Part shown: positions 14,233-59,906 of the stretch, piece after piece | How the letters are laid out: every line of letters begins with the position of its first letter | How positions within the stretch are numbered: position 1 is the stretch's first letter | Source: an uncultured Candidatus Saccharibacteria bacterium | GTDB lineage: Bacteria > Patescibacteriota > Minisyncoccia > Minisyncoccales > GWA2-38-27 | DNA: 64,000 bases | Reading direction: 5' to 3' | NCBI GenBank assembly: GCA_964387825.1 | Contig: CAYLWZ010000002.1 | Span: forward strand, 47,375 to 111,374 | Translations under genes and position numbers: made by a program | The notes under the pieces: generated by a model | Database searches by the model: none | What the model saw: the letters and a program-made list of their open reading frames with translations, nothing else | Told to the model about the DNA's origin: nothing

Positions 14233-14375
14233 AATTATTAAAAGAATTACGAATAATGAATTACGAATTAAGAATATTATATAATTCCTAATTCTTAATT
14301 CTAAATTCTAAATTCTAATTTATTTATTATTATCTTATTACTTTTTAAAAAAATGTCAATGTTTAGAGCGCGAAA

Positions 14376-17193: not shown

Positions 17194-17255
17194 TTTTTCT
17201 TGAAACTTAAAACTTGGAACTTAAAACATAATCATTTAAAAAGTTTCAGGTTTTA

Positions 17256-18847: not shown

Positions 18848-18918
18848 CGGGGTGTAGTATAATGGTAGTATTTGCCCTCGGGGAGGGTAAGACCCGAGTT
18901 CAATTCTCGGCACCCCGA
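18848..18918 (+). tRNA. tRNA-Pro (anticodon GGG at 18880-18882)
   Basis: manual cloverleaf: acceptor CGGGGTG/CACCCCG (C1:G72, A73 typical of bacterial tRNA-Pro), D-stem with two G-U pairs, anticodon stem TGCCC/GGGTA, loop UCGGGGA, T-arm CCGAG-TTCAATT-CTCGG; CCA not encoded. Confidence 0.7.
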
Positions 18919-18924
18919 CTATCC

Positions 18925-40959: not shown

Positions 40960-41673
40960 CTATCCTCTCATTTGGCAATCATCAAAAAAAGGCGAGATTT
41001 TCTTGACAATAGTTAAGATATATTCGTCGGGATAGGGTTTCAGTTTTTCAAATTCAGGGGCAAGGGTTTTCCCGGAACCAAATTGCTGTAAATAATATTT
41101 TTCTCCCTTTTCTTTCCCGCCGGAAGAAATCCAAGCGGCAATTTTCAAAATATCTTTTTCGGTTAACAAGGTAGGCACAACTGTCGTCCGAAATTCATAA
41201 CCTACTTTATTCTTTTTTAAAAAAGCGACGCTTTTTTCAATTTTCCCGATATCTATCTTTCTTCCAATCATTTTTTGGTATTTCTCTTTCGGCGCTTTAA
41301 TATCCATCGCTACATAATCAATTAATTTTTTGTCAATTAAATTCTTCAGCGCGTCTGGATTTGAACCGTTAGTGTCTAATTTTACCGCATAGCCAAGGTT
41401 TTTAATCCTTCTGGCAAATTTTTCTAAATCTTTGTTAACAGTCGGTTCGCCGCCACACAAAACACATCCTTCCAGCAAATTTTTTCTTTCACTTAAAAAT
41501 TTAAAAAATTCCTTCTCTGATATTTTTGGCTGAATTTTAATCCTCTCGGGCAGAACAAGCTCTGGAGAATGGCACCAAGGACAACAAAAATTACATCCTG
41601 TTAAAAAAACTGTGCAAGCAAGTTTGTCCGGAAAATCAATCAAAGTCAATTTTTCTAATCCGCCGATAACCAT
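40960..41673 (-). CDS. nrdG: anaerobic ribonucleoside-triphosphate reductase activating protein NrdG (radical SAM)
   Basis: CNFCCPWCHSP radical-SAM cluster motif and NrdG-like length; start likely MVIGG (41673); track ORF extends upstream. Confidence 0.75.
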   Translation of the reverse strand: MVIGGLEKLTLIDFPDKLACTVFLTGCNFCCPWCHSPELVLPERIKIQPKISEKEFFKFLSERKNLLEGCVLCGGEPTVNKDLEKFARRIKNLGYAVKLDTNGSNPDALKNLIDKKLIDYVAMDIKAPKEKYQKMIGRKIDIGKIEKSVAFLKKNKVGYEFRTTVVPTLLTEKDILKIAAWISSGGKEKGEKYYLQQFGSGKTLAPEFEKLKPYPDEYILTIVKKISPFFDDCQMRG

Positions 41674-41680
41674 ACAAAAA

Positions 41681-46060: not shown

Positions 46061-46897
46061 TTAAATTTCTATTTTTTTGAAATCGACCTTGTTTTTTATC
46101 TTTGACCCCGCCCGGCGGGACAAATTTTTAAGCAATTCCTCCTCGTAAACCGGCTTTTGGATTTTATAAAAAATACCGATGGGGATCTGATTGTCGTTTT
46201 TGTCATAATCCCATTCCTCAATTTTTTTCAAGGTTTCTCTTTCTGAATTTTTCGCCTTATAAACCTTGGCGTTATAAAATTGGAAAGTGTTGAAAAAAGA
46301 AACACAAGGCTGAAGAATCTCAATAAAAGAAAATCCTCTGTGTTGAACCCCTTTAATAATCAAATCTTTAAGATGTTCTGTTTCAGCCGAATACCCCCGG
46401 GCAATGAATGTTGCCCCGGAAGCCAACATTAATTTCAAGGGATTGAAAGGCGTTTCAATACTGCCTTGAGGAGAGGACTTTCCTTTAAAGCCTCTTGGCG
46501 AAGTGGCCGTAAACTGGCCGGCAGTCAAAGCGAAATTTCTGTTATCGTGAACCAAAACAGTGATGTCGCTATTTCTTTTAGCAGCATAAATTAAATGAGA
46601 AATTCCTTCATTGTAAGTTCCTCCGTCTCCGACAGAAACTATAACCTTTAGGTCAGGATTACCTAATTTTATCCCTTCAGCCGAAATAACCGGCCGTCCG
46701 TGCAAAGAGGAAAAACTATTTATATCAAGATAGTCAATAATCTTTGAGGCGCAGCCGATTCCGCTAACCGCCACTAAATTTTCCTTAGCCAACCCTCCCG
46801 CCACCAAAGAAGAAATTGCCTTTTTTAAGGCGGCTAAAATACCGAAATTACCGCAACCAGGACACCAGGTATTTTTAGCATAAGTAGATAGATTCAT
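46061..46897 (-). CDS. porB: 2-oxoacid:ferredoxin oxidoreductase beta subunit (TPP-binding)
   Basis: …WCPGCGNFGI…GIGC… TPP-binding signature. Confidence 0.8.
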   Translation of the reverse strand: MNLSTYAKNTWCPGCGNFGILAALKKAISSLVAGGLAKENLVAVSGIGCASKIIDYLDINSFSSLHGRPVISAEGIKLGNPDLKVIVSVGDGGTYNEGISHLIYAAKRNSDITVLVHDNRNFALTAGQFTATSPRGFKGKSSPQGSIETPFNPLKLMLASGATFIARGYSAETEHLKDLIIKGVQHRGFSFIEILQPCVSFFNTFQFYNAKVYKAKNSERETLKKIEEWDYDKNDNQIPIGIFYKIQKPVYEEELLKNLSRRAGSKIKNKVDFKKIEI

Positions 46898-47068: not shown

Positions 47069-48787
47069 TTAGGTCAATTTCTCTTCAATCTCTTCCGGTA
47101 AGAAAGGTCTAGCGTTGTATTTTAATATTTTCTTATCAACTTTAATACCGTAACAATTTAAGACCTTTTCCATTTGTCCCAAGCCGTTTGTTTCTATTAA
47201 GACAAGTTTTTTAACTCCTTTTAACGCGTTTTTCATCTGTTTTTCCGGAAATGGTTCAATAATAATCGGCTGGACCATTCTCATCCCTAACTTCTCCGCC
47301 ACCTCTTTTGCTGGTCCTTTCGTTGAACCCCAAACAATAAGCGCTTTTTTAGCTGTTTTCTTCCCGTAAACCTTAACCGCTTCTAATCTATCAACCTCTT
47401 TTCTCATTTCCTCAAATTTTCTTAGCCGCTTATTTTGCATTTCTTCTACCTTTTTTCCTTCTTCCACTGTAATTCCGAACTCGTCATGTTCATAACTGTT
47501 TGCTTTGACAATTGCATTTTTCTCCCCCGGAAAAGCAAGAGGAGAAATTCCATTTCTTGTTTTTTTGTATCTCAAATATTCACCCCCGCCTGCATTGGCT
47601 ATACCAAAGGCATTGCGGGCAGGCTTTTTGTTCCAAAGCAAAGGTTCTTCACGTTTAATTTTCTCTAAAATATTTTTATTAAAACTAAAGGTACTTTCGG
47701 AAACTTCCTTATCAAGTAATAAAATTGACGGTGTTTGGTACTTCCAAGAAAGATTTAAAATTTCTCCGGCCCAATAACAAGCCTCGTCAGCATCGCCGGG
47801 AGCGATAACAAACCTTACAATATCGCCATGCCCGGCTCCTAAAACAAAAAGTAAATCTCCCTGGCCAGTATAAGTAGGTACTCCGCTAGCAGGAGACATT
47901 CTTTGGCTTTCTACTATTACCAAAGGAGTTTCATTCTGGGCAGCCAAACTAAACCCTTCTACCATTAAAGCAAATCCTCCTCCCGAAGTTCCAACTATTG
48001 TCCTTGCTCCGGCATATGACGCCCCGATAGCCGCGTTCACCACCCCTGTCTCGTTTTCCAGTTGGGCAACGGCTATATTAAAATCTTTTTTGCGCTTGGC
48101 TAAATAATGCAAAATCCCGCTGGCCGGGGTCATCGGATAAGCAATGTAAAGATCTAAACCAGCTTTAACAGCGCCCAAAGCAACCGCTTCGTTCCCGGTT
48201 AAAAGAAGAAACTGCTTTTTCCCGCTTTTGTTCCCGCTAAAACGGACATTTAGCGGGACAATTTTAAATAAATTAGGGCTATCTTCAAAAGCGGCTTTCG
48301 CTACTTTTATATTTATTTCTTGAAATTTTTTAAATTCTTTTTTTAAAACCTCTTCTAATGTTTTCCAGTCAAAACCGATAATTTTTGCAAAAGCGGAAAC
48401 AAGAGCGATGTTCTCCATTATCGGCTTGCCGCCCACCTTTTCAACGATTGTTTTTATCGCCACCCCAATTCCTTTTCTTTTTCTAAAAGAAATCTCATCG
48501 CTATTGTAAATAATTATTCCTTTTTTGTCTAAATCGCTTTCGTGTTTTTTGATGGTGATTGCGTCCAGGGCTAAAAGAAAATCTATTTTTTCCCGATGAG
48601 ATAAAACTTCTTTTTCCGACGCCCTAATTTGAGAAAAATCATGGCCCCCTCTAATCAAGGATTGATAATCATCGTAAATAAAAATTCTATAACCAATCTG
48701 GGAAAATAATTTGGCAATTATAAGACCGGCTTTCTTGGAACCGCGGCCGGCGGCGCCTCCTATTAAAATTGAATAATCCTTAGCCAT
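47069..48787 (-). CDS. porGA: 2-oxoacid:ferredoxin oxidoreductase fused gamma-alpha subunit
   Basis: N-terminal gamma-like MAKDYSILIGGAAGRGSKKAG… then alpha-subunit domains; carries one PARNA element (47586-47624). Confidence 0.75.
   Translation of the reverse strand: MAKDYSILIGGAAGRGSKKAGLIIAKLFSQIGYRIFIYDDYQSLIRGGHDFSQIRASEKEVLSHREKIDFLLALDAITIKKHESDLDKKGIIIYNSDEISFRKRKGIGVAIKTIVEKVGGKPIMENIALVSAFAKIIGFDWKTLEEVLKKEFKKFQEINIKVAKAAFEDSPNLFKIVPLNVRFSGNKSGKKQFLLLTGNEAVALGAVKAGLDLYIAYPMTPASGILHYLAKRKKDFNIAVAQLENETGVVNAAIGASYAGARTIVGTSGGGFALMVEGFSLAAQNETPLVIVESQRMSPASGVPTYTGQGDLLFVLGAGHGDIVRFVIAPGDADEACYWAGEILNLSWKYQTPSILLLDKEVSESTFSFNKNILEKIKREEPLLWNKKPARNAFGIANAGGGEYLRYKKTRNGISPLAFPGEKNAIVKANSYEHDEFGITVEEGKKVEEMQNKRLRKFEEMRKEVDRLEAVKVYGKKTAKKALIVWGSTKGPAKEVAEKLGMRMVQPIIIEPFPEKQMKNALKGVKKLVLIETNGLGQMEKVLNCYGIKVDKKILKYNARPFLPEEIEEKLT
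47586..47624. repeat. GC-rich PARNA element, in-frame in POR alpha (encodes PARNAFGIANAGGG)
   Basis: ccgcctgcattggctataccaaaggcattgcgggcaggc shares both end motifs with the 36-bp family. Confidence 0.7.
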
Positions 48788-48870: not shown

Positions 48871-49563
48871 TTAAATTTCAATTATTCTTCCTGCTCCGCC
48901 TTCAATGTATTTTTGAGGATAGAGTTTTTTAAGTTCTATTTTATGCTGAGTACAATGAGTGGGACAGATTAATTCTAAATCTCTGAATAACTCAAATTCA
49001 GAAAATCCATGCAATCCCCCAACGATCCCATAAATTTTGCCGAATTGTTTTGCCGCGTCTAAAATATGCTTCATCTCTGGATGGGAACATCCAACAATTA
49101 AAACTATTCCTTTATCGGTCTCAACCCCCATACTCTGTTCAATGCCTTCCAATTCTCCGGTAGAAAATACATTTTCATGAATTTTTGTCGGTCCTTTTAT
49201 AATAACAACTTCTCTGTTTCTAAATCCATGAAATGAAGGAGGAATGTAAATTTTAACCCTTTTATTCACGTTTAGAAATTCAGAAAGCCCGCCGGTATGG
49301 TCAAAATGAGAATGGGAAATGAAAATTTCATCAATTGAAACCGGGTCAATTTTCAGTTTTTCCATATTACTAAGCAAAATTTTTCCGTTTCCCCCGGTAT
49401 CAAACAGAATCTTCGGAGTATTTTTTATTTCAACCAAGGCAGAAAAACCCCAATCGGACTTAAGGTCTTTTCTATAGGCGGTGTTGTCGTAAACAATAGT
49501 AATTTTTACTCCTCTCGCCCTGTTAGAAATTACATTTCCGTTAGGGCTTGGTGATTGCTCCAT
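48871..49563 (-). CDS. metallo-beta-lactamase-fold hydrolase
   Basis: HSHFDHTGG (HxHxDH) and downstream His motifs. Confidence 0.7.
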   Translation of the reverse strand: MEQSPSPNGNVISNRARGVKITIVYDNTAYRKDLKSDWGFSALVEIKNTPKILFDTGGNGKILLSNMEKLKIDPVSIDEIFISHSHFDHTGGLSEFLNVNKRVKIYIPPSFHGFRNREVVIIKGPTKIHENVFSTGELEGIEQSMGVETDKGIVLIVGCSHPEMKHILDAAKQFGKIYGIVGGLHGFSEFELFRDLELICPTHCTQHKIELKKLYPQKYIEGGAGRIIEI

Positions 49564-49569: not shown

Positions 49570-49869
49570 TTAGCTCTTCCAATTTTCCTGCTCTTTAGCC
49601 AAAAAATCTTCCAATTCTTTTTTATCCATTATCGTTGTCTCTATTTTTATATCCATCTTTAATTTAGTCAATGGCTCTTTTATTAACTCTATTAACTGGT
49701 CTTTGATGGGAATATTTAGAAAAGGAAAAGCCAGAACAATAATTGCCTTATTGCCTTCAACTTTTATATCCTTAATCATCCCAAGATTCAGAAGGGTCTC
49801 ATCAATAGCAGGATGTTTTATTCCTTTTAATAATTCTTTAACGTCCTCTGATGAAGTATTGTTGATCAT
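49570..49869 (-). CDS. DUF59/MIP18-family Fe-S assembly protein
   Basis: …IKHPAIDETLLNLGMIKDIKVEGN… DUF59 pattern. Confidence 0.55.
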   Translation of the reverse strand: MINNTSSEDVKELLKGIKHPAIDETLLNLGMIKDIKVEGNKAIIVLAFPFLNIPIKDQLIELIKEPLTKLKMDIKIETTIMDKKELEDFLAKEQENWKS

Positions 49870-50189
49870 TTGGCTAAAGGAATTTTTTTAGTTAGTTTAA
49901 TTGCTCCCGTGGGACAAACAGATTGGCACAATCCGCAAAAACAGCATTTATTAATATCAATTCGGGGTTGCTTTTTTATAGTTCCGTCTTTTTGTCTAAC
50001 TTCAACCATTGTAATCGCTTTATTGGGACAAGCCTCGGCGCATAAGCCGCATCCCAAACATTTATCCGGAGAAAAGCCAGGAATCCCTCTATAACCGTCG
50101 GGAATAGAAAGAGATTCTTTAGGAAACCTAACCGTAAGCGGCTTTTTAAACAGGTTCAATACCAATTTTGGAATAATCCTTAATTTCAT
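49866..50189 (-). CDS. 2x[4Fe-4S] ferredoxin (NuoI/MbhN-like)
   Basis: CLGCGLCAEACP … CCFCGLCQSVCP. Confidence 0.7.
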   Translation of the reverse strand: MKLRIIPKLVLNLFKKPLTVRFPKESLSIPDGYRGIPGFSPDKCLGCGLCAEACPNKAITMVEVRQKDGTIKKQPRIDINKCCFCGLCQSVCPTGAIKLTKKIPLAK

Positions 50190-50253
50190 ATTGCAAAAAT
50201 ACAGATATCTTTAGAGTTAGCTACTTTTATTTTTTTCACAAGTATTTTCTAAT

Positions 50254-51075
50254 TTATTTTTTCTCTAATCTTTCAATAATTTTTTTTACATCGTTAAAAG
50301 CTCTACTTTTATCTGGGAAATTCCTTTCTAATCCTGATTCTATTATTTTGGAATCGCATTGAACTGTGCCAATAATTTTACTTTTCAATTTCCCCAATTT
50401 ATTTATCATCTGGGATTCTATTTCTTTTGACTTAATTTTGTTTAAGGCCAACCAAAAATTTTTCATTTTCATATCACTACAAAAATCATTTACTCTTTTA
50501 GCAATTGAAATAGACTCAAGGGTAGGGTCGAGAATAAGCAAAACGATATCCACGTTTTCTGATATTCTCCTTCCAAAATGTTCAACTCCGGCCTTGGCGT
50601 CAATAAGATTTACGTAATCTCCTTTTACTATAAAATCCCTAACTACTTTTTCTACTGGTCCATCGCAACCTTGACCATATTTTTTAATCTTCCCTGCCTG
50701 AAATAAAATTATTCGTTTCCTTTTAACAAAATATTTATCTGGAATCTCTTTAAAAATATCTATCTTTTTTTCAGGCACGGGGATAGAATCGTTCAATCTA
50801 GTAAGCGGAGAGGGATCGTCTACGGGACAGGTAACCACCTTAGTTCCACCAAAAAAATCTATCAAGGCTTTTGGAAAGTCCTTTTCTTTTTTTAATCCGA
50901 GCATCAATCCGGAGAGTCCCCGAGGATTAGAGGCATCACCGTCTAAGGCAAGAACCTTGTATCCTTTTTCCTTTAATACATTTGAGATTAAAGTAACCAG
51001 AGTACTTTTTCCGCTTCCTCCTTTTCCAGAAATTAATATTCTCATTCCTTTTAGTTTTTTGTTTGTTTTTGGCAT
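50254..51075 (-). CDS. MinD/CooC-family P-loop ATPase (metallocentre maturation-like)
   Basis: ISGKGGSGKST deviant Walker A; CooC/Mrp-like length. Confidence 0.65.
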   Translation of the reverse strand: MPKTNKKLKGMRILISGKGGSGKSTLVTLISNVLKEKGYKVLALDGDASNPRGLSGLMLGLKKEKDFPKALIDFFGGTKVVTCPVDDPSPLTRLNDSIPVPEKKIDIFKEIPDKYFVKRKRIILFQAGKIKKYGQGCDGPVEKVVRDFIVKGDYVNLIDAKAGVEHFGRRISENVDIVLLILDPTLESISIAKRVNDFCSDMKMKNFWLALNKIKSKEIESQMINKLGKLKSKIIGTVQCDSKIIESGLERNFPDKSRAFNDVKKIIERLEKK

Positions 51076-51094
51076 TTTAACGTTTTGACAATTT

Positions 51095-51655
51095 TTATTT
51101 TAATATTATTCCTTTTCTTTCTTCCTTATTGTATTCCTCTACTATCTCGTTTACATTTTCCTTGATTATTCCAATTGCATCTTTGATTAAAGGTTCCCTT
51201 ATAATTACGGGAACAAATTTAGTTTTCATCCGAACAATATTTGGACCAATCATTTTTCCTATAATTACATTAACATTTTTCAGGACAGATGAAACTGCTT
51301 TTGCTTTTTCAGGATCTCCATGGATCCTAGATTCGTCTTCTTTATACTTAGTGTTTTCTCTTTTCTCTTGAAAAACTAAGTTTCCATTTGAGTATTCCCA
51401 TATTGAATAATATTTAGACATTCCGACATGGTCGTCTGGCTTTATTCTTTTACCATCGTCGGTTCCGATAGCAAATATTAATTTTTGCCCGATATCTTTT
51501 ATCGCGTCCTGGGGACAACCTTTTATAGCATTTCTTAAGCAGTCAGCTTTTTTGTCTTTTATTCTCGCCATCCCGTTTACTAGTTCTATCCCCTCCGGAC
51601 ATATTCTTGCGCAGATCCCGCATCCTATACATTTATTTTTACTTATATTTATCAT
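51095..51655 (-). CDS. 4Fe-4S ferredoxin domain fused to NifX/NifB-like domain
   Basis: CIGCGICARICPEG…C…CPQDAI then FAIGTDDGKRI…VIIGKMIGPN… NifX-like pattern. Confidence 0.6.
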   Translation of the reverse strand: MINISKNKCIGCGICARICPEGIELVNGMARIKDKKADCLRNAIKGCPQDAIKDIGQKLIFAIGTDDGKRIKPDDHVGMSKYYSIWEYSNGNLVFQEKRENTKYKEDESRIHGDPEKAKAVSSVLKNVNVIIGKMIGPNIVRMKTKFVPVIIREPLIKDAIGIIKENVNEIVEEYNKEERKGIILK

Positions 51656-51679
51656 TTTTTTTATTTAGTTGAATAATGG

Positions 51680-52798
51680 TTATCTATCCATATCCGCAGG
51701 ACAACCGTTTAAGCTCCAATAAATTACGGGTATATCCGCTACTTCCGCTCCCTTCAACAAAAATTCCAAGACCGGAATTAAATGCAGAAAAGAAGGGCCT
51801 TTAATTTTAACCCGTTCAGGATTGATCCCTCCATTGCCCCTTACATATATAGCTCCCTCTCCCCGGGCTATTTCATTTCTAACATATGCTTCTTTTTCCG
51901 GCAGGGCAAAAGGCGTTCCGACTCTCATTTTTTCATTAAGATAGAAGCCCAAAGGAATTTTATCTAATAGTTGCTTGATAATTTTAACACTTTCTTTTAT
52001 TTCTAACAATCCAATTTTAAATCTTGAATAAGAATCGCCTTCTTTTAAGACAGGCGCGTCAAAATCTACTTCTTTGTATATTTCATAAGGTTCGTTCTTT
52101 CTTATGTCCTGTAAAAATCCGCTGGCCCTTAAAACAGGACCGCTGGCCCCCAGCCTGACAGCCTCTTCCGATTTTAGAACCCCTATTCCTTTGGTTCTTG
52201 AAGCAAAAACAGGATCTTCTTTTTTAAAATAAGAAGTTGCCTCTATTATTTTGCCTAAAACTTTTAAAATTTTGTTTTCAATGCCTTCAGGCAGGTCCTT
52301 TCTCAAACCGCCGGGACAAATATAACCGGCTGGATATACTCTCCCCCCGGTAACAGCGGAAAAAATATCTAAAATATAATCTCTATAGCCAAAAGCTGTT
52401 TTAAAACCGGTGTCAAATCCGGTAGCAGAAGAAAGAGCTCCGAACCAAATAAGATGGGACTGAATCCGAGACAATTCGGCTAAAATTACTCTAACATATT
52501 TTGCTCTTTCCGGAACTTCAATATCGGCTAATTTTTCCACTGCTTCCGCAAAAAGCAAATTCCAAGCCAATGGCTCAAAAACGCAAATCCTGTCTGATAA
52601 AACCGCGTTCTGCCAAACATTTCTGTATTCCATTAATTTTTCAAATCCCCTGTGCAAGTATCCCGGGTCCGCTTTCGCTTCAACGACTTTTTCCCCGTCT
52701 AATTTTATCCTCACTGAAAAATTACCCGATCCAGGATGAGCCGGCCCGAATAAAAATTCCTGATATTGTCCTTTATTTTCTTCTTTCATTTTTGTCAA
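51680..52798 (-). CDS. [NiFe]-hydrogenase large subunit / NuoD-like subunit lacking NiFe-ligating cysteines (Ehr/Mbh-type)
   Basis: GPAHPGSGNFSV…, …EKLADIEVPERAKYVRVILAELSRIQSHL… NuoD/group-4 pattern; N-terminal site reads DRICVFEP (one Cys); C-terminus reads NGCPADMDR (one Cys, not the DPCxxC pair). Confidence 0.75.
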   Translation of the reverse strand: MTKMKEENKGQYQEFLFGPAHPGSGNFSVRIKLDGEKVVEAKADPGYLHRGFEKLMEYRNVWQNAVLSDRICVFEPLAWNLLFAEAVEKLADIEVPERAKYVRVILAELSRIQSHLIWFGALSSATGFDTGFKTAFGYRDYILDIFSAVTGGRVYPAGYICPGGLRKDLPEGIENKILKVLGKIIEATSYFKKEDPVFASRTKGIGVLKSEEAVRLGASGPVLRASGFLQDIRKNEPYEIYKEVDFDAPVLKEGDSYSRFKIGLLEIKESVKIIKQLLDKIPLGFYLNEKMRVGTPFALPEKEAYVRNEIARGEGAIYVRGNGGINPERVKIKGPSFLHLIPVLEFLLKGAEVADIPVIYWSLNGCPADMDR

Positions 52799-52833
52799 TT
52801 TAATCCCGCTGAAAGCAGGAGAAAATTGAAAAT

Positions 52834-53322
52834 TTAGATAAAGTATCCTTCTTCATTTTCTTTTTCTCTGTTATAAAATTTTTCTCTTACATGCGCTCGC
52901 CAGTCAAAATCCTTTAAAAACGGAGCCGGTCCCGGCCAATCTTCTAAAAATAATTCTGATAAATCCGAATTTCCTAAAAAATTCACCCCAAAAAGTTCGT
53001 GTATTTCTCTCTCATGAATTTGAGAAGAATCATATGTCTTTGAAACCGAGCCGATTTCCGGATTAATTCTGGCAATTTCTATTTTGATATTTAAACCCAT
53101 TTTCTTTTCTTCGCTCCAAATATGATAGATAAGTTCAATGACATTTTTTTCCAAAATATCAACCGCCGTTAAAAAGGAAAAGAAATTAAAACCCTCGCCT
53201 TTTAAAAAATCGCAGACATTTGGCAAATTATTCCGGCTGACCCTAAGCCAAATTTGGTTTTTCTCTTTTTTCAAAACTTCTGTCTCAAATTTTGATTTTA
53301 GAATTGAAATTAAATCACTCAT
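52834..53322 (-). CDS. NuoC-like (30-kDa) subunit
   Basis: position and size in Mbh-like gene order; NuoC-type fold pattern. Confidence 0.6.
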   Translation of the reverse strand: MSDLISILKSKFETEVLKKEKNQIWLRVSRNNLPNVCDFLKGEGFNFFSFLTAVDILEKNVIELIYHIWSEEKKMGLNIKIEIARINPEIGSVSKTYDSSQIHEREIHELFGVNFLGNSDLSELFLEDWPGPAPFLKDFDWRAHVREKFYNREKENEEGYFI

Positions 53323-53761
53323 ATCTCTTTATTAACTTACTAATTCCGTCAAAAATTGCTTCCGGCCTCGGAGGACAACCGGGAATATATAAATCTACAG
53401 GTAAATAATCTCCCAATCTTTTTATAGTGTTATATGAATCCCAATACATCCCTCCGCTTACCGGGCAGGACCCCAAGGCAATGACAATTTTTGGAGAAGG
53501 CATCTGTTCGTAAATCATTTTCGCTCTTTTAATTGACTTCATTGTCTGATAACCGGCAATAATCAGGCAATCGGCCTGCCTGGGGCTGGAAACCGGAATC
53601 AAGCCAAACCTTTCCATATCCCACCTGCTTCCCACTACCGGCAAAATCTCCATAAAGCCGCAGGAATTAAACCAATTAAAAACCCAGATAGATTTTGCTA
53701 CTTTTTTTAATTTTCTTTTTGATTCAGGCATAATTAAAAATTTAAAACCGTGTCTATCCAC
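53315..53761 (-). CDS. NuoB-like / hydrogenase small subunit
   Basis: …GSCPVSGG… and …PGCPPRPE… motifs; first site reads NSCGFME (single Cys instead of CC). Confidence 0.75.
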   Translation of the reverse strand: MDRHGFKFLIMPESKRKLKKVAKSIWVFNWFNSCGFMEILPVVGSRWDMERFGLIPVSSPRQADCLIIAGYQTMKSIKRAKMIYEQMPSPKIVIALGSCPVSGGMYWDSYNTIKRLGDYLPVDLYIPGCPPRPEAIFDGISKLIKRYE

Positions 53762-54702
53762 ACTGTTAAAAATCCGATGATAGACAATAAAGTAAGTCCC
53801 CCCCAGTAAGCTCTGGTTAAACGGCTGATTTTGAACCTTGAAGTAACTGTTCTAATTAAAGTTAAGCCGATAAATATTATTAAAAACAGCTTTAGAAGAT
53901 AAATAGAAAGCATTGCGGCAAAATTTGCTTGGATATTCCAAGGAAAGAAAAGAACAATAAACAAAGAAGCGATTGCAACCGCTTTTACCGCTTCGGCCAC
54001 ATAAAACATTGCCAAATTTCTCCCGGAATATTCCGCTAATGCTCCGCCGGCAATTTCCGAACCAGCCGCCTCAACATCAAAAGGAGTTTGGGATAATTCG
54101 CCGGCGATGATAATAAAAATAACTATTGTTTCTATTGAAAGCCCGATAATCCCGATTGGTCCAACCAAATTCCAGATATTATGGCTATAGATTGTATTCA
54201 AAGAGAAAATATTTGGAAACCCATTTTTGTAAATCAGCCAGACAGGAGCAAGACTGACGACGGCCAAAGGAAATTCGTAGCCCAGCATATTGATAATCAT
54301 TCTTTGACCGCCAAGGTTGGCATAGGGAGAATTAGAAGAAAATGCTCCTAAAACTAAACTCAAACCCGGAAATATAAACAGATAAATTACTAAAATGAGG
54401 TCTCCGGAATTTCCTAAAACAGATTTCCCGGCAATAGGAATATAAAACAAAATCAAAATAGAAACTGTCAAAGAAATCAAAGGCGACAGTTCAAAAATCC
54501 ATTTCAAGGAATGTTTCGGGATTATACTCTCTTTAACTATCAGTTTCTTTAAATCATAAAACGGCTGCAAAATAGGAGGTCCAACCCTTTTCTGCATTTT
54601 AGCGCTTAAAATTCTGTCAATTCCTTTAAAGAGCAAACCTAAAATCACGCTTCCAAAAATTATCGCAAGAGTCATTAAAAATTTTAAAATCAGGTTGGGC
54701 AT
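53734..54702 (-). CDS. NuoH/MbhM/CooK-like membrane subunit
   Basis: …MQKRVGPPILQPFYDLKK… (GxxxxxQxRxGP) signature; 8 TM. Confidence 0.75.
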   Translation of the reverse strand: MPNLILKFLMTLAIIFGSVILGLLFKGIDRILSAKMQKRVGPPILQPFYDLKKLIVKESIIPKHSLKWIFELSPLISLTVSILILFYIPIAGKSVLGNSGDLILVIYLFIFPGLSLVLGAFSSNSPYANLGGQRMIINMLGYEFPLAVVSLAPVWLIYKNGFPNIFSLNTIYSHNIWNLVGPIGIIGLSIETIVIFIIIAGELSQTPFDVEAAGSEIAGGALAEYSGRNLAMFYVAEAVKAVAIASLFIVLFFPWNIQANFAAMLSIYLLKLFLIIFIGLTLIRTVTSRFKISRLTRAYWGGLTLLSIIGFLTVWIDTVLNF

Positions 54703-54995
54703 ATCACTAAAAGAAAGATAATTAAACCGAAAATAAACAGAAAAATATAGTCGTTAGCGTTTTCTTTTTTGGTCTTTTGCAAGAAATTATACAGTTTCTC
54801 AAAATCTTTAAAAAATCCCCAATAGATATTTTCCAGTTTAACGTCTTTAGGAGGCTCTTCTCCGGAAAAATAAGAAACTGTTTGGGACGTTCCTTTATGG
54901 TATCTCTTTTCTCCAAGCAAATAAAAAAGGTAAACTACAAAAAGGATAAAAAAGAAAAAAATTAGAGCGATTTTTGGCTGCCAAATTATATGCAT
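54690..54995 (-). CDS. small membrane subunit (MbhI-like)
   Basis: 101 aa, 2 TM, translationally coupled inside the operon. Confidence 0.4.
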   Translation of the reverse strand: MHIIWQPKIALIFFFFILFVVYLFYLLGEKRYHKGTSQTVSYFSGEEPPKDVKLENIYWGFFKDFEKLYNFLQKTKKENANDYIFLFIFGLIIFLLVICPT

Positions 54996-55002
54996 TGTAA
55001 GT

Positions 55003-56511
55003 TTAATGGATTACGTTATTGATATAAACTTGTTGATTGATTAGCGCTTTTGCCGCCGGATTGACAAAAGAATCTACAAATTGTTTTGGGAAAAGGCCTA
55101 TCAAAATCATCAAGACCGCAAATATTGAAACGATAGCAACCGCCAATTTAGGAACCGGCTGGCAGTTTTCGGACTGTTTTCCAAGAAATATTGAGGCGAA
55201 AACTTTAACCAAAACCGCCAAAATCAAAATGCTTCCCAGGATTCCGACAACTGCCAAAGCAGGATTTAAACGGAAAACTGATTCGTAAATCATTATTTTT
55301 GAAGCAAAACCATTCAACGGCGGCATCCCGGACACGGCTAAAATTCCTAAAAGAAAAAACCCTGATAATAATGGCTCCTTATGGGCAAGTCCCCGAATTT
55401 TAAAAACATCTCTGGTTTTGCTAAGATAAACAATAACGCCGGCGATTAAAAACAGCAGGCCTATGTCCAAAACATCATTTATCATATGGAATAATCCTCC
55501 TTGGATTGCTTTAAATCCAAAATCAGTATTTGAGCTCGCCATACCGGAAGAAATCCCTAAAACTACATAACCTAATTCGGAAATAGCTAAATAGGCCAAA
55601 ATTCTTTTAAGATTATTTTCTTTTAGTGCCAGGAAAACTCCGACAAAAATTGAAAGGACTGAAAACAAAATTAGAATCCACCCTAAACTAATATTTGCGC
55701 CGAAAACATCAAAGGCGATTCTGAACAGAACATAGACAGCAGACAAGGAAGAAATTATAGACAAAATAATCACCGATATAGGAGATGCCTTATATGCTTC
55801 CGGCTTCCAAAAATAAAAAGGAAAAACTCCTACTTTTAACAACAAGCTGGAAGCGATGAAAGATAAGGCAACTTTGTCTATAAAAGAGAACTGAAGATTG
55901 TTGGCGATAATAGCCATATTCAAAAATCCGTATTCGCTATAAAGAAGCCCTACCCCAAACAGCAAGAACAGAGAACCGACGGCGAAAACAGCTAAATAAT
56001 GAAAGGCTGCTTTAAAACACTCTCTATCTCTGAAAAAAGCAATCAAACCGGCAGTAGCAATGGAACTTATTTCATAAAACACAAAAAGGGTGAAAAAATC
56101 TCCGGTAAATAAAAAGCCTAAAATTCCCGCCATAAGCAAGAAATAAAGAGCGTAAAATTTGTCCAAAGAGAAAGAGGGACTTAAAATTTTCCGGGAGTAA
56201 AGAAGAACTAAAGAGGCGATAAAAATGAAAACCAGAGCTAAAAATCCCGACAAAGCGTCTGCTGTCAAAATAATTCTTACGGGAAATCCCTGAGGCGAAG
56301 TCATTGAAGGAAATTCAGCTCCTACGCTATAAACAAATGTTCCTCCTCTGAAAATTGAACTATAAAGAAGAAAAGAAAAAACATTGACTGACGCCAAAAC
56401 CAAAAAAACCCAAAAATCTCTTATCTTTTTACTTAACTTGCTCAACAGAGGCAATAAAAATGCGCCTAACAAGGGAATAGCTATTATCAAAATAATAAAA
56501 TGAGAAGACAT
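55003..56511 (-). CDS. MrpD/NuoM-like antiporter subunit (MbhH-like)
   Basis: 502 aa, ~14 TM, NuoL/M/N family pattern. Confidence 0.75.
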   Translation of the reverse strand: MSSHFIILIIAIPLLGAFLLPLLSKLSKKIRDFWVFLVLASVNVFSFLLYSSIFRGGTFVYSVGAEFPSMTSPQGFPVRIILTADALSGFLALVFIFIASLVLLYSRKILSPSFSLDKFYALYFLLMAGILGFLFTGDFFTLFVFYEISSIATAGLIAFFRDRECFKAAFHYLAVFAVGSLFLLFGVGLLYSEYGFLNMAIIANNLQFSFIDKVALSFIASSLLLKVGVFPFYFWKPEAYKASPISVIILSIISSLSAVYVLFRIAFDVFGANISLGWILILFSVLSIFVGVFLALKENNLKRILAYLAISELGYVVLGISSGMASSNTDFGFKAIQGGLFHMINDVLDIGLLFLIAGVIVYLSKTRDVFKIRGLAHKEPLLSGFFLLGILAVSGMPPLNGFASKIMIYESVFRLNPALAVVGILGSILILAVLVKVFASIFLGKQSENCQPVPKLAVAIVSIFAVLMILIGLFPKQFVDSFVNPAAKALINQQVYINNVIH

Positions 56512-56512
56512 A

Positions 56513-56827
56513 TTATTTAGAATTTTCGGATGATTTATAAATCAAAATTGCCAGAGAAAGCAAAAAGGCGGTTATGGCTAAATTAATAACAATACTGGTA
56601 AGTATCAACGCTTGCGGAGTTGGAGAAACCATATTTAAATTTGGGGCATTGGTAAAAATCGGAGCTATCCCTCCTTGCCTGTATCCCAAACCTATTAAAA
56701 ACAAATTTACTCCGTTGCCGATAATGTTAACAGCCATGGCTATTTTAATTAAATTCTTTCTGAATATCGCCCCGAAGATTCCTATTATTACTAAAAAAAT
56801 TGTAGTTAGAAAAACAAAACTAATCAT
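56513..56827 (-). CDS. MrpC/NuoK-like subunit
   Basis: 104 aa, 3 TM, NuoK-like. Confidence 0.6.
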   Translation of the reverse strand: MISFVFLTTIFLVIIGIFGAIFRKNLIKIAMAVNIIGNGVNLFLIGLGYRQGGIAPIFTNAPNLNMVSPTPQALILTSIVINLAITAFLLSLAILIYKSSENSK

Positions 56828-57257
56828 TTTTTTTCGTCATTAATAAAATAACAAGAGACAAGGCCGAAGCTACTTCTATTCCTACAGCTAAATTCATTAA
56901 AAGAATAACTCCGCCGCTGTTGAGATAACCCGAGTTTATTCCAAAATGGATTGTTTTACCTAAAATTCCGGTTGTATTTGCCAAGAAATTATAAAAAAAT
57001 GTGTTTTTGAAAATGGCCAAAAAAGCTAAAATAATAAAAAATATAAGACCCAAAGATTCAAATAAAGAAAATAGGCCCTTTGACAACCTAATATCATCTT
57101 CAAAAACAACCAACATTAATACGGTTGCTCCGGCGATTATCACCCCTCCCTGAAATCCGCCACCAGGAGTCAAGTGGCCATGAGAAATGACATATAAACC
57201 AAATATAATTATTGGATTTAAAATTATTAAACTAACGATTTTAACTATTTTGGTCAT
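56820..57257 (-). CDS. MrpB-like subunit (MbhF-like)
   Basis: ISHGHLTPGGGFQGGVI MnhB-domain motif. Confidence 0.65.
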   Translation of the reverse strand: MTKIVKIVSLIILNPIIIFGLYVISHGHLTPGGGFQGGVIIAGATVLMLVVFEDDIRLSKGLFSLFESLGLIFFIILAFLAIFKNTFFYNFLANTTGILGKTIHFGINSGYLNSGGVILLMNLAVGIEVASALSLVILLMTKKND

Positions 57258-57555
57258 AAGTTTTCTTCTTGGTATCTTTGGTTAGAAATTTCGCTTCTGA
57301 GGGAGAAAAGATTAAAAAGATTCCCATAACGGCGGCGAAAAGAACCGTTGCTTCTCCCAATGTGTCCAGCCCGCGATAATCAAAAACTATACTGGAAACA
57401 ATATTATTGCTTCCAGTCTGTGTTTGAGCATTCTTGATAAAATAGTCGTCCATTTTTACTGTTTCAGGTTTTCCAAAAGGATGGATAAATAAGAAAACCA
57501 AAACAAGAAAAACAGATAAAATTAGAATGGTTGTTTTTTTAATCATTGTTCCCAA
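57241..57555 (-). CDS. MrpB-fragment-like subunit (MbhE-like)
   Basis: FDYRGLDTLGE motif of MnhB C-terminal domain. Confidence 0.55.
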   Translation of the reverse strand: MGTMIKKTTILILSVFLVLVFLFIHPFGKPETVKMDDYFIKNAQTQTGSNNIVSSIVFDYRGLDTLGEATVLFAAVMGIFLIFSPSEAKFLTKDTKKKTYDQNS

Positions 57556-57797
57556 CGCCCGGTTTTTTTAATGGCAATTATATAAATAGCCGAAGACAAA
57601 CCCGCTCCGACGGCCGCTTCGGCAATAGCTACATCAGGAGCTTGGAGAATATAAAATTCCCCTGCCAGCATTAAACTCATTGCCGCAAAATAAATAACTG
57701 AAACAAATAAATCTTTGCTTTTTATTAATAAAAAAGCCGAGAGAATCATACCGGTTAAAATTAAGCCCTGAATAATTTGGATTAGAGAAAAATTCAT
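57543..57797 (-). CDS. MrpB-fragment-like subunit (MbhD-like)
   Basis: APDVAIAEAAVGAGLS motif. Confidence 0.55.
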   Translation of the reverse strand: MNFSLIQIIQGLILTGMILSAFLLIKSKDLFVSVIYFAAMSLMLAGEFYILQAPDVAIAEAAVGAGLSSAIYIIAIKKTGRWEQ

Positions 57798-58132
57798 ACT
57801 GTTTTAGTCCTATTGTTTAATTTATCTATTATTGCTTCTTTTGGCTTTACTCCATTTCTATAAGCCGCTCTTGAAATCGCATGGCCTATGCAAGGTTGGA
57901 TTATTAAAAGAATTAAGGCAATTATAATCATACGTGCAGGCAAAGAGAAATTAAAATTTTCAACAATTAAAAAATATATCAAAGAAGTTAAAGTAAAAAA
58001 GAGAAAGCCAAAAGTGGTGGACAAGCCCGCGGAATGCAACCGGGTATAAACATCGGGAAACCTGAAAAGGCCTAAAACGCTCAAACTAAAAAAAATTAAA
58101 CTAACTGAAATAAATAAATAAACCAAAAACAT
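57794..58132 (-). CDS. MrpG/MnhG-like subunit
   Basis: LGLFRFPDVYTRLHSAGLSTTFG MnhG signature. Confidence 0.7.
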   Translation of the reverse strand: MFLVYLFISVSLIFFSLSVLGLFRFPDVYTRLHSAGLSTTFGFLFFTLTSLIYFLIVENFNFSLPARMIIIALILLIIQPCIGHAISRAAYRNGVKPKEAIIDKLNNRTKTV

Positions 58133-58134
58133 AA

Positions 58135-58410
58135 TTATTCAACATATTTAGTAAAATAAAGGATGCCTATAAGAGAAAGCAAGGCGTAAACAATGGCTAT
58201 ATCCGCTAAAATAACCTCTTTCCAAATAATAGAAAGCGTTATCAAGAGGGCGATAACTAGCGTATTTGCAACATCCAAAACAACCAATTTGTCAAAAATA
58301 GTCTTTACCAAAAAGACCCTTGCTAAAGCAATAAAAATAAGTATTGAAAAAATTAGAGCGGTTATTTGCCACATAGCTAATTCAATTATTCGGTAATTAT
58401 TTTGATCCAC
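58135..58410 (-). CDS. MrpF/MnhF-like subunit
   Basis: 91 aa, 3 TM, position between E and G. Confidence 0.55.
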   Translation of the reverse strand: MDQNNYRIIELAMWQITALIFSILIFIALARVFLVKTIFDKLVVLDVANTLVIALLITLSIIWKEVILADIAIVYALLSLIGILYFTKYVE

Positions 58411-58895
58411 TTGGCGAAATTTCCCGCTACCTGCTTGATATCCGGTTCCTTATTCTCGGTCCAAAGCCAATGAACATAAAGGTTATTTTCCTGGTCTACA
58501 TCTACTGAGAGTGTTCCTGGAGTTAAGGTGATAGAATTTGCCAACAAGGTTGTCCCGAAATCAGTTTTTAATTTCGGTGATATTTTTACAATTCCCGGCC
58601 TGATTCTTTTGGTAAGAATCCTATAAGCGACTGTCAAATTCGCCTTAATTAAACTGAAAAAAAAGGGACCAAAAATATAAATCAAAAATAAACCCCACCT
58701 TAAGGGACTTAAAAATTTTCGGCTGATTTTAATTTCAAGCAACCGGAAAATTCTCTGAATTATCAATCCGGTCACAACAGATAAGACGCTCCCTAAAATA
58801 ATTTCTTCTTTGCTCCAATAGAGAACATCTCCTGAGCCAATAGTTAAAACAAGGTAGATGACTAAGGAAAAAATAAAAGAAACGATAAAGTTCAT
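58386..58895 (-). CDS. MrpE/MnhE-like subunit
   Basis: …ANSITLTPGTLSVDVD… MnhE signature. Confidence 0.65.
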   Translation of the reverse strand: MNFIVSFIFSLVIYLVLTIGSGDVLYWSKEEIILGSVLSVVTGLIIQRIFRLLEIKISRKFLSPLRWGLFLIYIFGPFFFSLIKANLTVAYRILTKRIRPGIVKISPKLKTDFGTTLLANSITLTPGTLSVDVDQENNLYVHWLWTENKEPDIKQVAGNFAKWIKIITE

Positions 58896-58961
58896 TAAAT
58901 TTATTTCGGAATATAAATTATCTTACCCCCGCACATAAATTATGTACGGGAACAGGATAGT

Positions 58962-59681
58962 TTATTTTGCGAAAAGTCCGCAATAACAACGGCCGTCTTT
59001 TTGAATTTCCTGCTTATGCCAAACGCAGGGACAAATCTTCGGCCTATCATCCTCTATATCTCCGGTTACTCTTCTGCAGGGACAATATCGAGCCCCATAT
59101 TTTTTCTCGTTTGCCAAAAGTCCTTTTATTAATCCTTCAACCGCCGCTTTATCGGGATTTAATCTAAATCCGTTCTTTTTAGCGTAAACCTCATACTGTT
59201 TAATTATCTCTTCAATTTCTCCTCTTTTTTCTTTTTCCTCACTTTCTCCTTCTCTTTTATTTCCTTCTTCTTCCTTACTCCCTTCTTCTCTACCTCCTTC
59301 TTCCTTATTTCCTTCTTCCGTTCCATCGCTTTCTTTTCTTACCCCCTTAAGACCTTCCTTCTCTAACACTCCGTCCAACCACTCTTTTACAATTGGTTCT
59401 GGTCTCGCTCCGATAAATCCGCTAACCGGCTTTCCGTCTTTAAACAAAACTACCGTAGGAATCTGATTAATCCCAAATTTTTGAGCAGTCTGGGGAGTCT
59501 CGTCTACGTTAACTTTAGCCAAACTAATTTTATCTTCATAATCTTGGGCTAATTTTTCCAAAATCGGCGACAATACAAGACAGGGACTGCACCATGTAGC
59601 CCAAAAATCAACTAAAATCAGCTTATTGGCTTTTTTAATTTCTTCCTCAAAATTTTCATCGGTTAAAATTATTTCTGACAT
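58962..59681 (-). CDS. thioredoxin fused via acidic low-complexity linker to ferredoxin:thioredoxin reductase catalytic-subunit-like domain
   Basis: FWATWCSPC thioredoxin active site; linker EGNKEEGGREEGSKEEEGNKREGESEEKEKRGE; C-terminal YCPCRRV…ICPCVWH…GRCYCGLF FTR-catalytic-domain Cys pattern. Confidence 0.65.
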   Translation of the reverse strand: MSEIILTDENFEEEIKKANKLILVDFWATWCSPCLVLSPILEKLAQDYEDKISLAKVNVDETPQTAQKFGINQIPTVVLFKDGKPVSGFIGARPEPIVKEWLDGVLEKEGLKGVRKESDGTEEGNKEEGGREEGSKEEEGNKREGESEEKEKRGEIEEIIKQYEVYAKKNGFRLNPDKAAVEGLIKGLLANEKKYGARYCPCRRVTGDIEDDRPKICPCVWHKQEIQKDGRCYCGLFAK

Positions 59682-59906
59682 AAGTAAATACCTCGAATTG
59701 CGAAATGCAGTTTTTGCCTAAAAAGCATTTCATAATTCAAGGTAAATAGCAAAATTATTTTATTTTATAAAGTATATACCCCAAAGAATATTTTGTCAAA
59801 ACCGCGCATATCTCTCAAATATATTACTTGCTTCGTTATCAATAAAAACAATGAGAACTATTCTCATTGTTTTGGTGTTTTAGTCAACCAGCGAGAGAGA
59901 ATATAT

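Follow-up and report, generated by a model that had tools for sequence, protein, structure and literature searches.

The 64,000-nucleotide stretch of DNA analysed here (called the window below; contig CAYLWZ010000002.1 of assembly GCA_964387825.1, positions 47,375 to 111,374) encodes on its minus strand a membrane-bound complex related to complex I, whose 14 subunits correspond one to one to those of the Pyrococcus membrane-bound hydrogenase (MBH), as identified using Pfam and NCBIfam profiles. Sequence comparison indicates that this complex is a hybrid, i.e., a membrane arm of the MBH type is joined to a cytoplasmic arm, composed of subunits J, K, L and N, of the type found in the Pyrococcus (P.) furiosus complex MBS (formerly named Mbx). 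From the sequence features and by analogy with MBS, we propose that the complex functions as an ion-pumping ferredoxin:sulfane-sulfur oxidoreductase, a reading to which we assign a probability of about one half.

The subunit genes are co-directional. Thirteen of them are located at 58895-51680, and the remaining one, which encodes subunit N, is found at 49866-50189 (Table 1). In the original prediction, based on the same DNA, all fourteen were placed in the former span; their number is correct, but that span holds only 13. The expected Pfam models are matched by 13 of the 14 subunits, the exception being the product of 54690-54995, for which a match to the NCBIfam model of MbhI is obtained instead.

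Catalytic signature of the cytoplasmic head

To determine the origin of the two arms, each subunit was compared with all solved structures in the PDB, where MBH is represented by entry 6CFW and MBS by entry 6U8Y. All four subunits of the cytoplasmic head have their best match in MBS. The scores are 156 bits for J with MbsJ (120 with MbhJ and 140 with NuoB/NdhK), 54.5 bits for K with MbsK (22.4 with MbhK), 277 bits for L with MbsL (229 with Nqo4, which is of the NuoD/NdhH type, and 160 with MbhL), and 72 bits for N with MbsN (58 with MbhN). J, K, L and N resemble MBS, and also complex I/NDH, more closely than they resemble MBH.

At the four positions that hold the ligands of the metal centre in [NiFe] hydrogenases, subunit L has Cys72, Glu75, Cys366 and Asp369 (motifs RICVFEP and NGCPADMDR). 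This pattern, C-E-C-D, is identical to that of P. furiosus MbsL, which retains two of the four former NiFe cysteines, C85 and C385 (PMC7684303). The large subunit had earlier been described as having a single Cys at each end, which agrees with the alignment, where neither the L1 nor the L2 Cys motif is intact; the term "cysteine-less" used in the same description is not appropriate because two cysteines remain. With Glu and Asp at two of the four ligand positions, a NiFe centre cannot be bound, as was already predicted, and the complex therefore cannot be a hydrogenase.

In subunit J, residues Cys34, Cys99 and Cys129 align with C28, C93 and C123 of MbsJ, and Phe31 is found at the position of MbsJ C25, in agreement with the earlier count of three out of four cluster cysteines. 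The first motif, WFNSCGFME, contains one Cys and hence no CxxC, so that the four-Cys proximal [4Fe-4S] cluster of MBH is not found here. In MbsJ the proximal [4Fe-4S] cluster is ligated by C28, C93 and C123 only, while C25 is too distant and dispensable, and the free iron of this cluster is the proposed site of polysulfide reduction (PMC7684303). Because the cluster of J is held by three cysteines only, one of its irons would be open. The original prediction referred to complexes with an unknown redox partner; since the three-Cys cluster is a known catalytic feature of MBS (PMC7684303), this partner is not simply "unknown". Taken together, these residues give the complex the sequence signature of the iron-sulfur-cluster catalysis that has been described for MBS.

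The relatives' loci that were compared are designated by numbers (L006, L084, etc.; not to be confused with subunit L), and the table of their cysteines spans about 80 loci. Below, class 1 refers to the clade to which the window's large subunit belongs, class 1a to the class 1 module on an MBH-type arm, and class 2 to loci encoding two pump subunits. The three-Cys pattern of J and the C-E-C-D pattern of L hold in every clade member that covers these positions (57-100% identity).

The ligand pattern bears directly on the possibility that the complex is a true H2-evolving membrane-bound [NiFe] hydrogenase, to which the membrane arm, the number of subunits and the presence of MbhI, all MBH-type, would point. 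This reading was rejected on the basis of the C-E-C-D pattern, i.e., the replacement of two of the four NiFe cysteines by Glu and Asp in every clade member. In addition, the score of L with MbhL is far lower than that with MbsL, and a scan of roughly 60 open reading frames (ORFs) of the window revealed no hyp maturation genes. A hydrogenase is therefore extremely unlikely.

A quinone reductase similar to complex I or NDH is suggested by the scores of L with NuoD/NdhH (229 bits) and of J with NuoB/NdhK (140 bits), and the NCBI naming rule would designate L "NADH-quinone oxidoreductase subunit D". Homology with complex I/NDH-1 indeed exists for the Q-module subunits (NuoB, C, D, I and H) and for the antiporter-like pump. 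However, in the columns of Nqo4 residues His38 and Tyr87 the window's L has a one-residue deletion and a Val, respectively, while the NuoD outgroup sequences in the same scan have His and Tyr in these columns, which validates the alignment. Furthermore, the tandem CC of cluster N2 in complex I corresponds to a single Cys in J, the N-module is absent, and the membrane arm, including its distal part, is of the Mrp/MBH type, without NuoA, NuoJ or a NuoL-M-N set. Bacteria of the Candidate Phyla Radiation (CPR) generally lack quinone synthesis. The absence of the His38 and Tyr87 equivalents, with the NuoD sequences as positive controls, led to rejection of this reading, and a quinone-reductase function is judged very unlikely from the sequence. 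A loop of L, considered with regard to Glu21 of MbhL (the proton-reduction residue), reads HPGSGNF in the window and HMATENF in MbsL.

An MBH-type membrane arm

The membrane arm, judged by the same comparison, is of the MBH type and consists of the Mrp-like module A-G, the single pump subunit H, the linker I and the anchor M. Best matches in MBH are found for A (122 bits with MbhA, 71 with MbsA), F (70.7 with MbhF, 46.7 with MbsE), H (302 with MbhH, 155 with MbsH and 90 with MbsH′) and M (195 with MbhM, 104 with MbsM), while for G the scores are tied (75.6 bits with MbsG, 74.8 with MbhG). In NCBIfam, H scores 471 bits with PRK08376 and 226 with PRK08377. Subunit I has 6cfw_I as its top PDB match, which is weak (E 0.08) and is to MbhI only, without an MBS counterpart. 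In MBS the role of MbhI is taken over by transmembrane helices 15-16 of MbsH′ (PMC8165549). The presence of MbhI and the absence of H′ therefore constitute a real structural difference from MBS, and they also imply one proton pump instead of two. In H, residues Glu146 (transmembrane helix 5, TM5), Lys226 (TM7) and Lys405 (TM12) are kept. Subunits E and F are encoded by separate genes in the window and in the class 1a loci, as in MBH, while in the class 2 loci these genes are fused. Only F matches MnhB (MrpB); D and E belong to the MbhD and MbhE families, so that the earlier description of three MrpB-fragment subunits does not apply.

The hybrid nature of the complex becomes apparent when it is set against the two solved structures. 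With MBS (PMC7684303) it shares, in addition to the closest match for the head, an L subunit that keeps only the equivalents of Cys85 and Cys385, the three ligands of the catalytic cluster in J, the absence of quinone and NiFe ligands, the gene order M-J-K-L-N and a presumed input from ferredoxin via a NuoI-like subunit. In contrast to MBS, the window has one antiporter-like subunit and MbhI where MBS has H and H′, the genes for E and F are not fused, the sequences of A, F, H and M are nearer to MBH, and J does not even have the vestigial Cys25. Moreover, the host is a mesophile-type CPR bacterium, while MBS is found in a hyperthermophilic archaeon. With MBH (6CFW) the complex shares the 14 subunit types, including MbhI and a single MbhH, and in A, F, H, I and M it is more similar to MBH than to any other solved structure; unlike MBH, it has no NiFe site, it has a proximal cluster with three cysteines only, and M precedes J. 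The original assignment as an "Mbh/Ehr-type" complex (Ehr, energy-converting hydrogenase-related) is thus adequate for the membrane arm and, if Ehr is used in a broad sense, for the complex as a whole, but the scores of J, K and L identify the head as being of the MBS/Mbx type.

Phylogeny of the large subunit and settings of the module

In a neighbor-joining tree of 102 large subunits (100 bootstraps, NuoD as the outgroup), NuoD is separated from all other large subunits with a bootstrap value of 100. One major clade (bootstrap 90) includes P. furiosus MbsL together with two-pump complexes from Hydrothermota, Spirochaetes, Bacteroidales, Thermotogae and sulfur-oxidising Gammaproteobacteria. 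The other (bootstrap 81) is composed of class 1, to which the window belongs (bootstrap 98), and some fused forms. Within class 1, eight CPR-type sequences are monophyletic (bootstrap 100) in mainly archaeal surroundings. By its signature the complex would thus work like MBS, but it belongs to a separate, well-supported clade and is not an orthologue of MBS.

An Ehr family in CPR bacteria is already known because it was reported by Jaffe et al. in 2020; in that article the clade is described as group-4-related, monophyletic, devoid of the metal-binding cysteines and patchily distributed, from which an old lateral transfer was inferred (PMC7304191). The clade of the window is almost certainly the same. 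In agreement with the published definition of Ehr (PMC6349859, PMC7304191), the large subunit is group-4-related, lacks the set of NiFe ligands and is encoded together with Mrp-antiporter-like subunits, and the CPR members are set apart from other Ehr sequences as a single clade (bootstrap 100). What the accessible text of Jaffe et al. covers is the phylogeny of the large subunit and its missing cysteines; the MBS-type signature, the hybrid architecture and the thioredoxin linkage discussed below are not seen there (PMC7304191).

The class 2 complexes (found in Thermotogae, Bacteroidales, Spirochaetes and sulfur-oxidising Gammaproteobacteria), which are presumably what is called "Thermotoga-type Mbx", belong to the same superfamily and share with the window an Mrp-like module and the order M-J-K-L-N. 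They differ in having two antiporter-like subunits, no I, a fused E-F, an N subunit of ~600 amino acids with an extra domain, and an L subunit that is 38-49% identical to that of the window and in several cases is without any Cys (N-E-V/T-E). The position of the NuoH-like gene (M) before the NuoB-like gene (J), which had been pointed out as a deviation, is real, but it is not odd because the same order is found in class 2 loci, including the closest relatives of P. furiosus MbsL. We take it to be the gene order of mbx as well.

Several side observations were made in these relatives. In the class 2 loci L021 and L024-L083, which include Planctomycetes, N has ~600-770 amino acids with a large extra domain. 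One class 2 subgroup has no Cys at any NiFe position of L (N-E-V/T-E), and in class 2 loci of the Bacteroidales type J has a Gly at the position of Cys25. In L022, L023, L064 and L080 (metagenome-assembled genomes, MAGs, of Hecatellales, Heimdallarchaeota and Thermoplasmata), N-, J- and L-like parts are fused into proteins of ~650-670 amino acids, encoded beside a K-like gene. In L004, L005, L009 and L057 the soluble-type J reads NSCGFCEL, with an extra Cys three residues past the ligand Cys, which could provide these lineages with a fourth ligand again.

Class 1 J-K-L-N modules occur in three settings. On an MBH-type arm it occurs in CPR bacteria, in an uncultured archaeon (L006), in a Desulfobacterales MAG (L008) and in an Altiarchaeales MAG (L011). 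In two contigs of the Thermoplasmata type (L087, 9060-15296; L088, 4042-10284), J-K-L-N is found without membrane genes and is directly followed by an HdrA-MvhD fusion (~770 amino acids), HdrC and HdrB. Its gene content is reminiscent of a soluble, Mvh-Hdr-like complex with the cysteine-poor module in place of the [NiFe] hydrogenase. In the third setting the module is apparently alone.

Thioredoxin genes at the head of the operon

The operon of the window is headed by a gene for a fusion of thioredoxin and the catalytic domain of ferredoxin:thioredoxin reductase (FTR). A ferredoxin-dependent thioredoxin system is found at every class 1a operon of the order M-J-K-L-N for which upstream sequence is available, in CPR bacteria and in one archaeon, and it takes three forms: a thioredoxin-FTR fusion heading the operon (window, L084), thioredoxin with a flavin thioredoxin reductase (TrxR) and a small ferredoxin (L085, L092), and thioredoxin and ferredoxin upstream with the catalytic subunit of FTR after N (L006). 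No thiol-related neighbours were found at the other class 1a loci, L008 and L011. In L006 (11378-13813) N is followed on the same strand by genes for the FTR catalytic subunit, a fusion of ferredoxin and a NifX-type domain, a NifU_N (IscU-like) scaffold and a SLAC1/TehA-type anion channel.

A parallel is provided by the SurR sulfur regulon of Thermococcales, which links mbs with pdo and TrxR (PMC12162507). By analogy with this regulon, the thiol/disulfide genes at the operon head would support a sulfane-sulfur acceptor. In two CPR relatives, an 82-amino-acid regulator of the CsoR/RcnR family is encoded directly upstream of the operon-heading thioredoxin gene (L084, 2921-3169; L092, 1710-1958). 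It has two Cys 29 residues apart and an Asn in place of the copper-binding His, and it is absent from the window and from L085. This combination, two Cys and no His, presumably marks persulfide sensors of the CstR type rather than copper sensors. As far as sequence allows, the occurrence of such a regulator before the operon would also count in favour of the sulfane-sulfur acceptor.

The same thioredoxin genes may be read differently. In an ion-pumping ferredoxin:disulfide reductase, electrons would be passed to thioredoxin or to a different disulfide or persulfide, either of a protein or of low molecular weight, and not to inorganic polysulfide; the open iron of J would cleave the S-S bond much as the cluster of FTR does, with the operon-head thioredoxin as the substrate. 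The three non-identical forms of the thioredoxin system at the M-J-K-L-N class 1a operons with upstream sequence fit such a function, as does the proximity of the soluble module to HdrABC, which is another disulfide reductase, and a soluble substrate would suit the narrow MBH-type M. On the other hand, FTR and flavin TrxR can already reduce thioredoxin from ferredoxin without any such complex, thioredoxin genes are missing from the neighbourhood of the complex in L008 and L011, and a protein substrate that reaches the NuoB/NuoD pocket is without precedent. The adjacency may also reflect mere co-regulation, as with mbs and pdo in Thermococcales. On balance this function is unlikely, though it is the chief rival of the sulfane-sulfur reading.

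In a broader version, to which we likewise give little weight, class 1 J-K-L-N would act as a general "open-iron" [4Fe-4S] disulfide/persulfide reductase, plugged into different partners in the course of evolution. Combined with the MBH-type arm, as in CPR bacteria and an archaeon, the module would operate as an ion-pumping ferredoxin:thioredoxin (or protein-persulfide) oxidoreductase. If so, the cells would respire on a cellular disulfide carrier, which would explain the thioredoxin/FTR genes at the head of the operon. In this version, a further metal or the substrate might be bound by L at its invariant C-E-C-D site.

At 40960-43831 the window also encodes NrdD, a ribonucleotide reductase of the anaerobic class III, together with the corresponding radical-SAM activase. 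Some class III ribonucleotide reductases take thioredoxin as the reductant. Use of thioredoxin by NrdD would give the thioredoxin-FTR fusion a housekeeping role.

Proposed mechanism

The subunit homologies, the cysteine patterns, the lack of NiFe and quinone ligands, the synteny and the phylogeny follow directly from the sequence analysis. For the sulfane-sulfur oxidoreductase that we favour, we infer an electron acceptor, a direction of electron transfer, the ions moved and a part for the accessory genes, which would combine as follows. The adjacent 2-oxoacid:ferredoxin oxidoreductase (POR), which is likely the local source of reduced ferredoxin, would reduce ferredoxin, and the operon-linked single-cluster ferredoxin may be the carrier. 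Electrons would then be transferred from ferredoxin to the two [4Fe-4S] clusters of N and on to the proximal [4Fe-4S] cluster of J with its three Cys and open iron. At a pocket formed by L, J and M, this iron would act as in P. furiosus MBS and cleave an S-S bond, the sulfane-sulfur substrate being polysulfide or an organic per- or polysulfide. The redox change would reach H and the Mrp module through loops of L, M and I, resulting in export of H+ or Na+, so that an ion gradient would be formed at the expense of ferredoxin in an otherwise fermentative cell. The thioredoxin genes would provide a partner for thiol protection or sensing, cf. the sulfur regulon of Thermococcales.

A number of observations weigh against this mechanism. 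The opening of the chamber is narrower in MBH than in MBS (PMC7684303), and with an M subunit of the MBH type, access for polysulfide is not assured. The cluster of J may have a fourth, non-Cys ligand, which would close the open iron. The window's L is only 41% identical to P. furiosus MbsL and is placed in the sister clade rather than in the MBS clade. The occurrence of J-K-L-N beside Hdr without membrane genes points to a soluble and possibly different substrate. No other genes of sulfur metabolism were found among the window's ORFs that were scanned. Finally, the lysine in TM8 of the pump subunit (Lys256 in MbhH) is replaced by Ser255 in H and is a non-lysine residue in all class 1a complexes examined.

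The missing TM8 lysine is also relevant to the idea that the complex is mainly an Mrp-type Na+/H+ antiporter with a vestigial or regulatory peripheral arm that does not turn over, which would be consistent with the presence of all seven Mrp-like functions. However, the cluster ligands of N and J as well as many residues of L are invariant across relatives that are 57-100% identical, which argues for a working redox module and makes an antiporter-only function clearly improbable.

The complex could also run in reverse, such that an ion gradient maintained by ATP hydrolysis lifts electrons from a weak donor (sulfide or thiols) to ferredoxin for use by FTR/thioredoxin, pyruvate synthase and radical-SAM enzymes. 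The related complexes Ech, Rnf and complex I are reversible, and consumers of ferredoxin are encoded in the window (FTR, the NrdG activase and POR, which could act as a synthase). Yet the POR beside the operon is a direct source of reduced ferredoxin in a fermenter, and the locus shows no sign of a dedicated low-potential demand such as CO2 fixation. Reverse operation is therefore considered distinctly unlikely.

Locus and host

From 59681 to 46061 the minus strand carries a run of genes almost without gaps, and nearly all genes of the window are found on this strand. The gene contents, strand and coordinates that had been assigned earlier correspond to ORFs that are present, and the Pfam and NCBIfam searches agree with the subunit assignments. 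The GC content of the operon, 34-37%, is the same as that of the remainder of the window. In CPR relatives the operon is intact and syntenic at 72-86% identity.

The start of the window (165-17669) holds a bacterial str/S10/spc cluster of genes for ribosomal proteins, EF-G and EF-Tu, as recognised from ORF sizes and order, with only EF-G being searched. Among named organisms, the relatives of its EF-G (79-82% identity) belong to "Patescibacteria group", Candidatus Nealsonbacteria and Pacebacteria, and the nearest match to L in the genome collection (86%) is labelled Candidatus Saccharibacteria. This label was not adopted for the host, because EF-G points to Parcubacteria-like relatives. The host, as judged from these sequences, is a CPR/Patescibacteria bacterium, and the earlier picture of a complex beside a 2-oxoacid:ferredoxin oxidoreductase in a small-genome lineage is sustained by the adjacent POR and by the EF-G relatives.

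A scan of the window with Rfam identified one tRNA only (Pro-GGG, 18848-18919, plus strand). In a promoter and terminator scan of the window, the number of sites did not exceed that in shuffled controls; therefore, only the best site is given in Table 1.

Table 1. Subunit genes, operon-head gene and neighbouring features (window positions)
Feature	Position	Strand	Basis
Best promoter-like site in the region, TTGACA-17-TATACT, 11/12	59771..59799	-	consensus match only; ~90 bp upstream of the thioredoxin-FTR gene
Thioredoxin (WCSPC), Glu/Lys/Gly-rich linker, FTR catalytic domain (CPC, CPC, CYC)	58962..59681	-	Pfam Thioredoxin 4e-31, FeThRed_B 5e-23; NCBIfam thioredoxin, FtrB
Subunit A (MrpE/MbhA type)	58386..58895	-	Pfam MNHE 6e-33
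Subunit B (MrpF type)	58135..58410	-	Pfam MrpF_PhaF 8e-12
Subunit C (MrpG type)	57794..58132	-	Pfam PhaG_MnhG_YufB 6e-18
Subunit D (MbhD type)	57543..57797	-	Pfam MbhD 9e-20
Subunit E (MbhE type), separate gene	57241..57555	-	Pfam MbhE 1e-11
Subunit F (MrpB/MbhF type)	56820..57257	-	Pfam MnhB 1e-21
Subunit G (MrpC/NuoK type)	56513..56827	-	Pfam Oxidored_q2 2e-19
Subunit H, sole antiporter-like (MrpD/NuoL-M-N type) pump subunit, 502 aa	55003..56511	-	Pfam Proton_antipo_M 5e-44
Subunit I (MbhI type), linker, 101 aa	54690..54995	-	NCBIfam MbhI E 1.5e-16; no Pfam match
Subunit M (NuoH type), anchors the peripheral arm to the membrane	53734..54702	-	Pfam NADHdh 9e-60
Subunit J (NuoB type)	53315..53761	-	MbsJ best PDB match; alignment
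Subunit K (NuoC type)	52834..53322	-	Pfam Complex1_30kDa 2e-24
Subunit L (NuoD/hydrogenase large-subunit type)	51680..52798	-	MbsL best PDB match
Fusion of single-cluster ferredoxin domain and NifX/Orange-protein-type domain	51095..51655	-	Pfam Fer4, Nitro_FeMo-Co
MinD/ParA/CbiA-type P-loop ATPase, accessory	50254..51075	-	Pfam CbiA 1e-10; NCBIfam weak MinD and MrpORP only
Subunit N (NuoI type), two CxxCxxCxxxCP motifs, presumed ferredoxin entry	49866..50189	-	Pfam Fer4 1e-16; NCBIfam NuoI 97 bits
DUF59/FeS_assembly_P protein, 4-bp overlap with N	49570..49869	-	Pfam 1e-07
MBL-fold (metallo-β-lactamase) protein	48871..49563	-	Pfam Lactamase_B
2-Oxoacid:ferredoxin oxidoreductase, gamma-alpha fusion	47069..48787	-	Pfam POR, POR_N, PFOR_II
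2-Oxoacid:ferredoxin oxidoreductase, beta	46061..46897	-	Pfam TPP_enzyme_C, PFO_beta_C

Accessory and neighbouring genes

The neighbours that had been named earlier are recovered with Pfam, i.e., the ferredoxin-NifX fusion, the NuoI-like protein with two [4Fe-4S] motifs, the DUF59 protein, the MBL-fold protein and POR downstream, and the thioredoxin-FTR fusion upstream. The label "CooC/MinD-like" for the ATPase is too specific, as CooC is without specific support and the matches are to generic MinD/ParA/CbiA models.

Among the CPR relatives compared, the ferredoxin-NifX fusion and the MinD-like gene are located between L and N in the window only. In L084, L085, L089, L091, L092 and L094, N directly follows L and the ferredoxin-NifX gene is absent between them; in L090, L is directly followed by an orthologue of the MinD-like protein (270 bits). 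The two proteins were considered as fixed subunits or dedicated maturases, a possibility that was rejected because their position varies among relatives at 73-84% identity; they are therefore regarded as accessory genes. This result also applies to the "Fe-S maturation" genes named in the original prediction, since the genes between L and N are not fixed members of the operon, N coming directly after L in relatives at 73-83% identity. The ferredoxin domain of the fusion is homologous to the stand-alone ferredoxin that heads the operon in relatives (L085, L092, L006).

The genes of the anaerobe-specific orange protein (ORP) complex resemble the ferredoxin-NifX and MinD-like genes (PMC6345978). 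Elsewhere in the window (34445-35443, 37469-38353 and 39652-40074), there are genes for two more ATPases of the MinD/ParA type, which carry inserted 2x[4Fe-4S] motifs, and another, stand-alone gene of the NifX/Orange-protein type. Together with a cation-efflux gene that lies between them, these genes are similar to the anaerobe-specific ORP set of Desulfovibrio.

The MBL-fold protein is probably not a subunit. Its gene recurs beside J-K-L-N modules (L089, L098, L016, L087 and L006), and the family is 74-84% identical across CPR, Dehalococcoidia, WOR-3 and methanogens, an unusually high conservation across domains. A role as a sulfur enzyme (of the persulfide dioxygenase/glyoxalase-II type) was rejected, as the AlphaFold2 model (pLDDT 86.7) has its best fold match in the phosphodiesterase 7DCK (TM score 0.86), with no link to sulfur. 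Between the gene for POR beta and that for uracil-DNA glycosylase there is a 408-amino-acid ORF (44632-45858) without a Pfam match.

Implications

A search for literature that connects MBS or Mbx with Saccharibacteria, CPR or thioredoxin gave nothing beyond Jaffe et al. Four elements were not found in the searchable literature: the MBS-type signature with three Cys in J and two in L in this CPR clade, the single-pump hybrid of an MBH arm and an MBS head, the repeated occurrence of this head next to HdrABC, and the conserved thioredoxin/FTR linkage.

The complex bears on the superfamily of complex I as well as on its host. The hybrid implies that the catalytic head and the pumping arm can be recombined, which is of relevance for the assembly of complex I; the head of one lineage is found on an MBH-type arm, next to HdrABC or standing alone, depending on the organism. 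With one pump and no vestigial Cys25, the complex is moreover a naturally reduced system in which the catalysis proposed for a three-Cys iron-sulfur cluster could be tested. The usual picture of CPR/Patescibacteria is that of obligate fermenters that have no electron transport. A conserved ferredoxin-driven ion pump would mean that part of the CPR conserves energy beyond substrate-level phosphorylation, probably by a simple form of respiration in which the acceptors are probably sulfur compounds that are common in anoxic CPR habitats.

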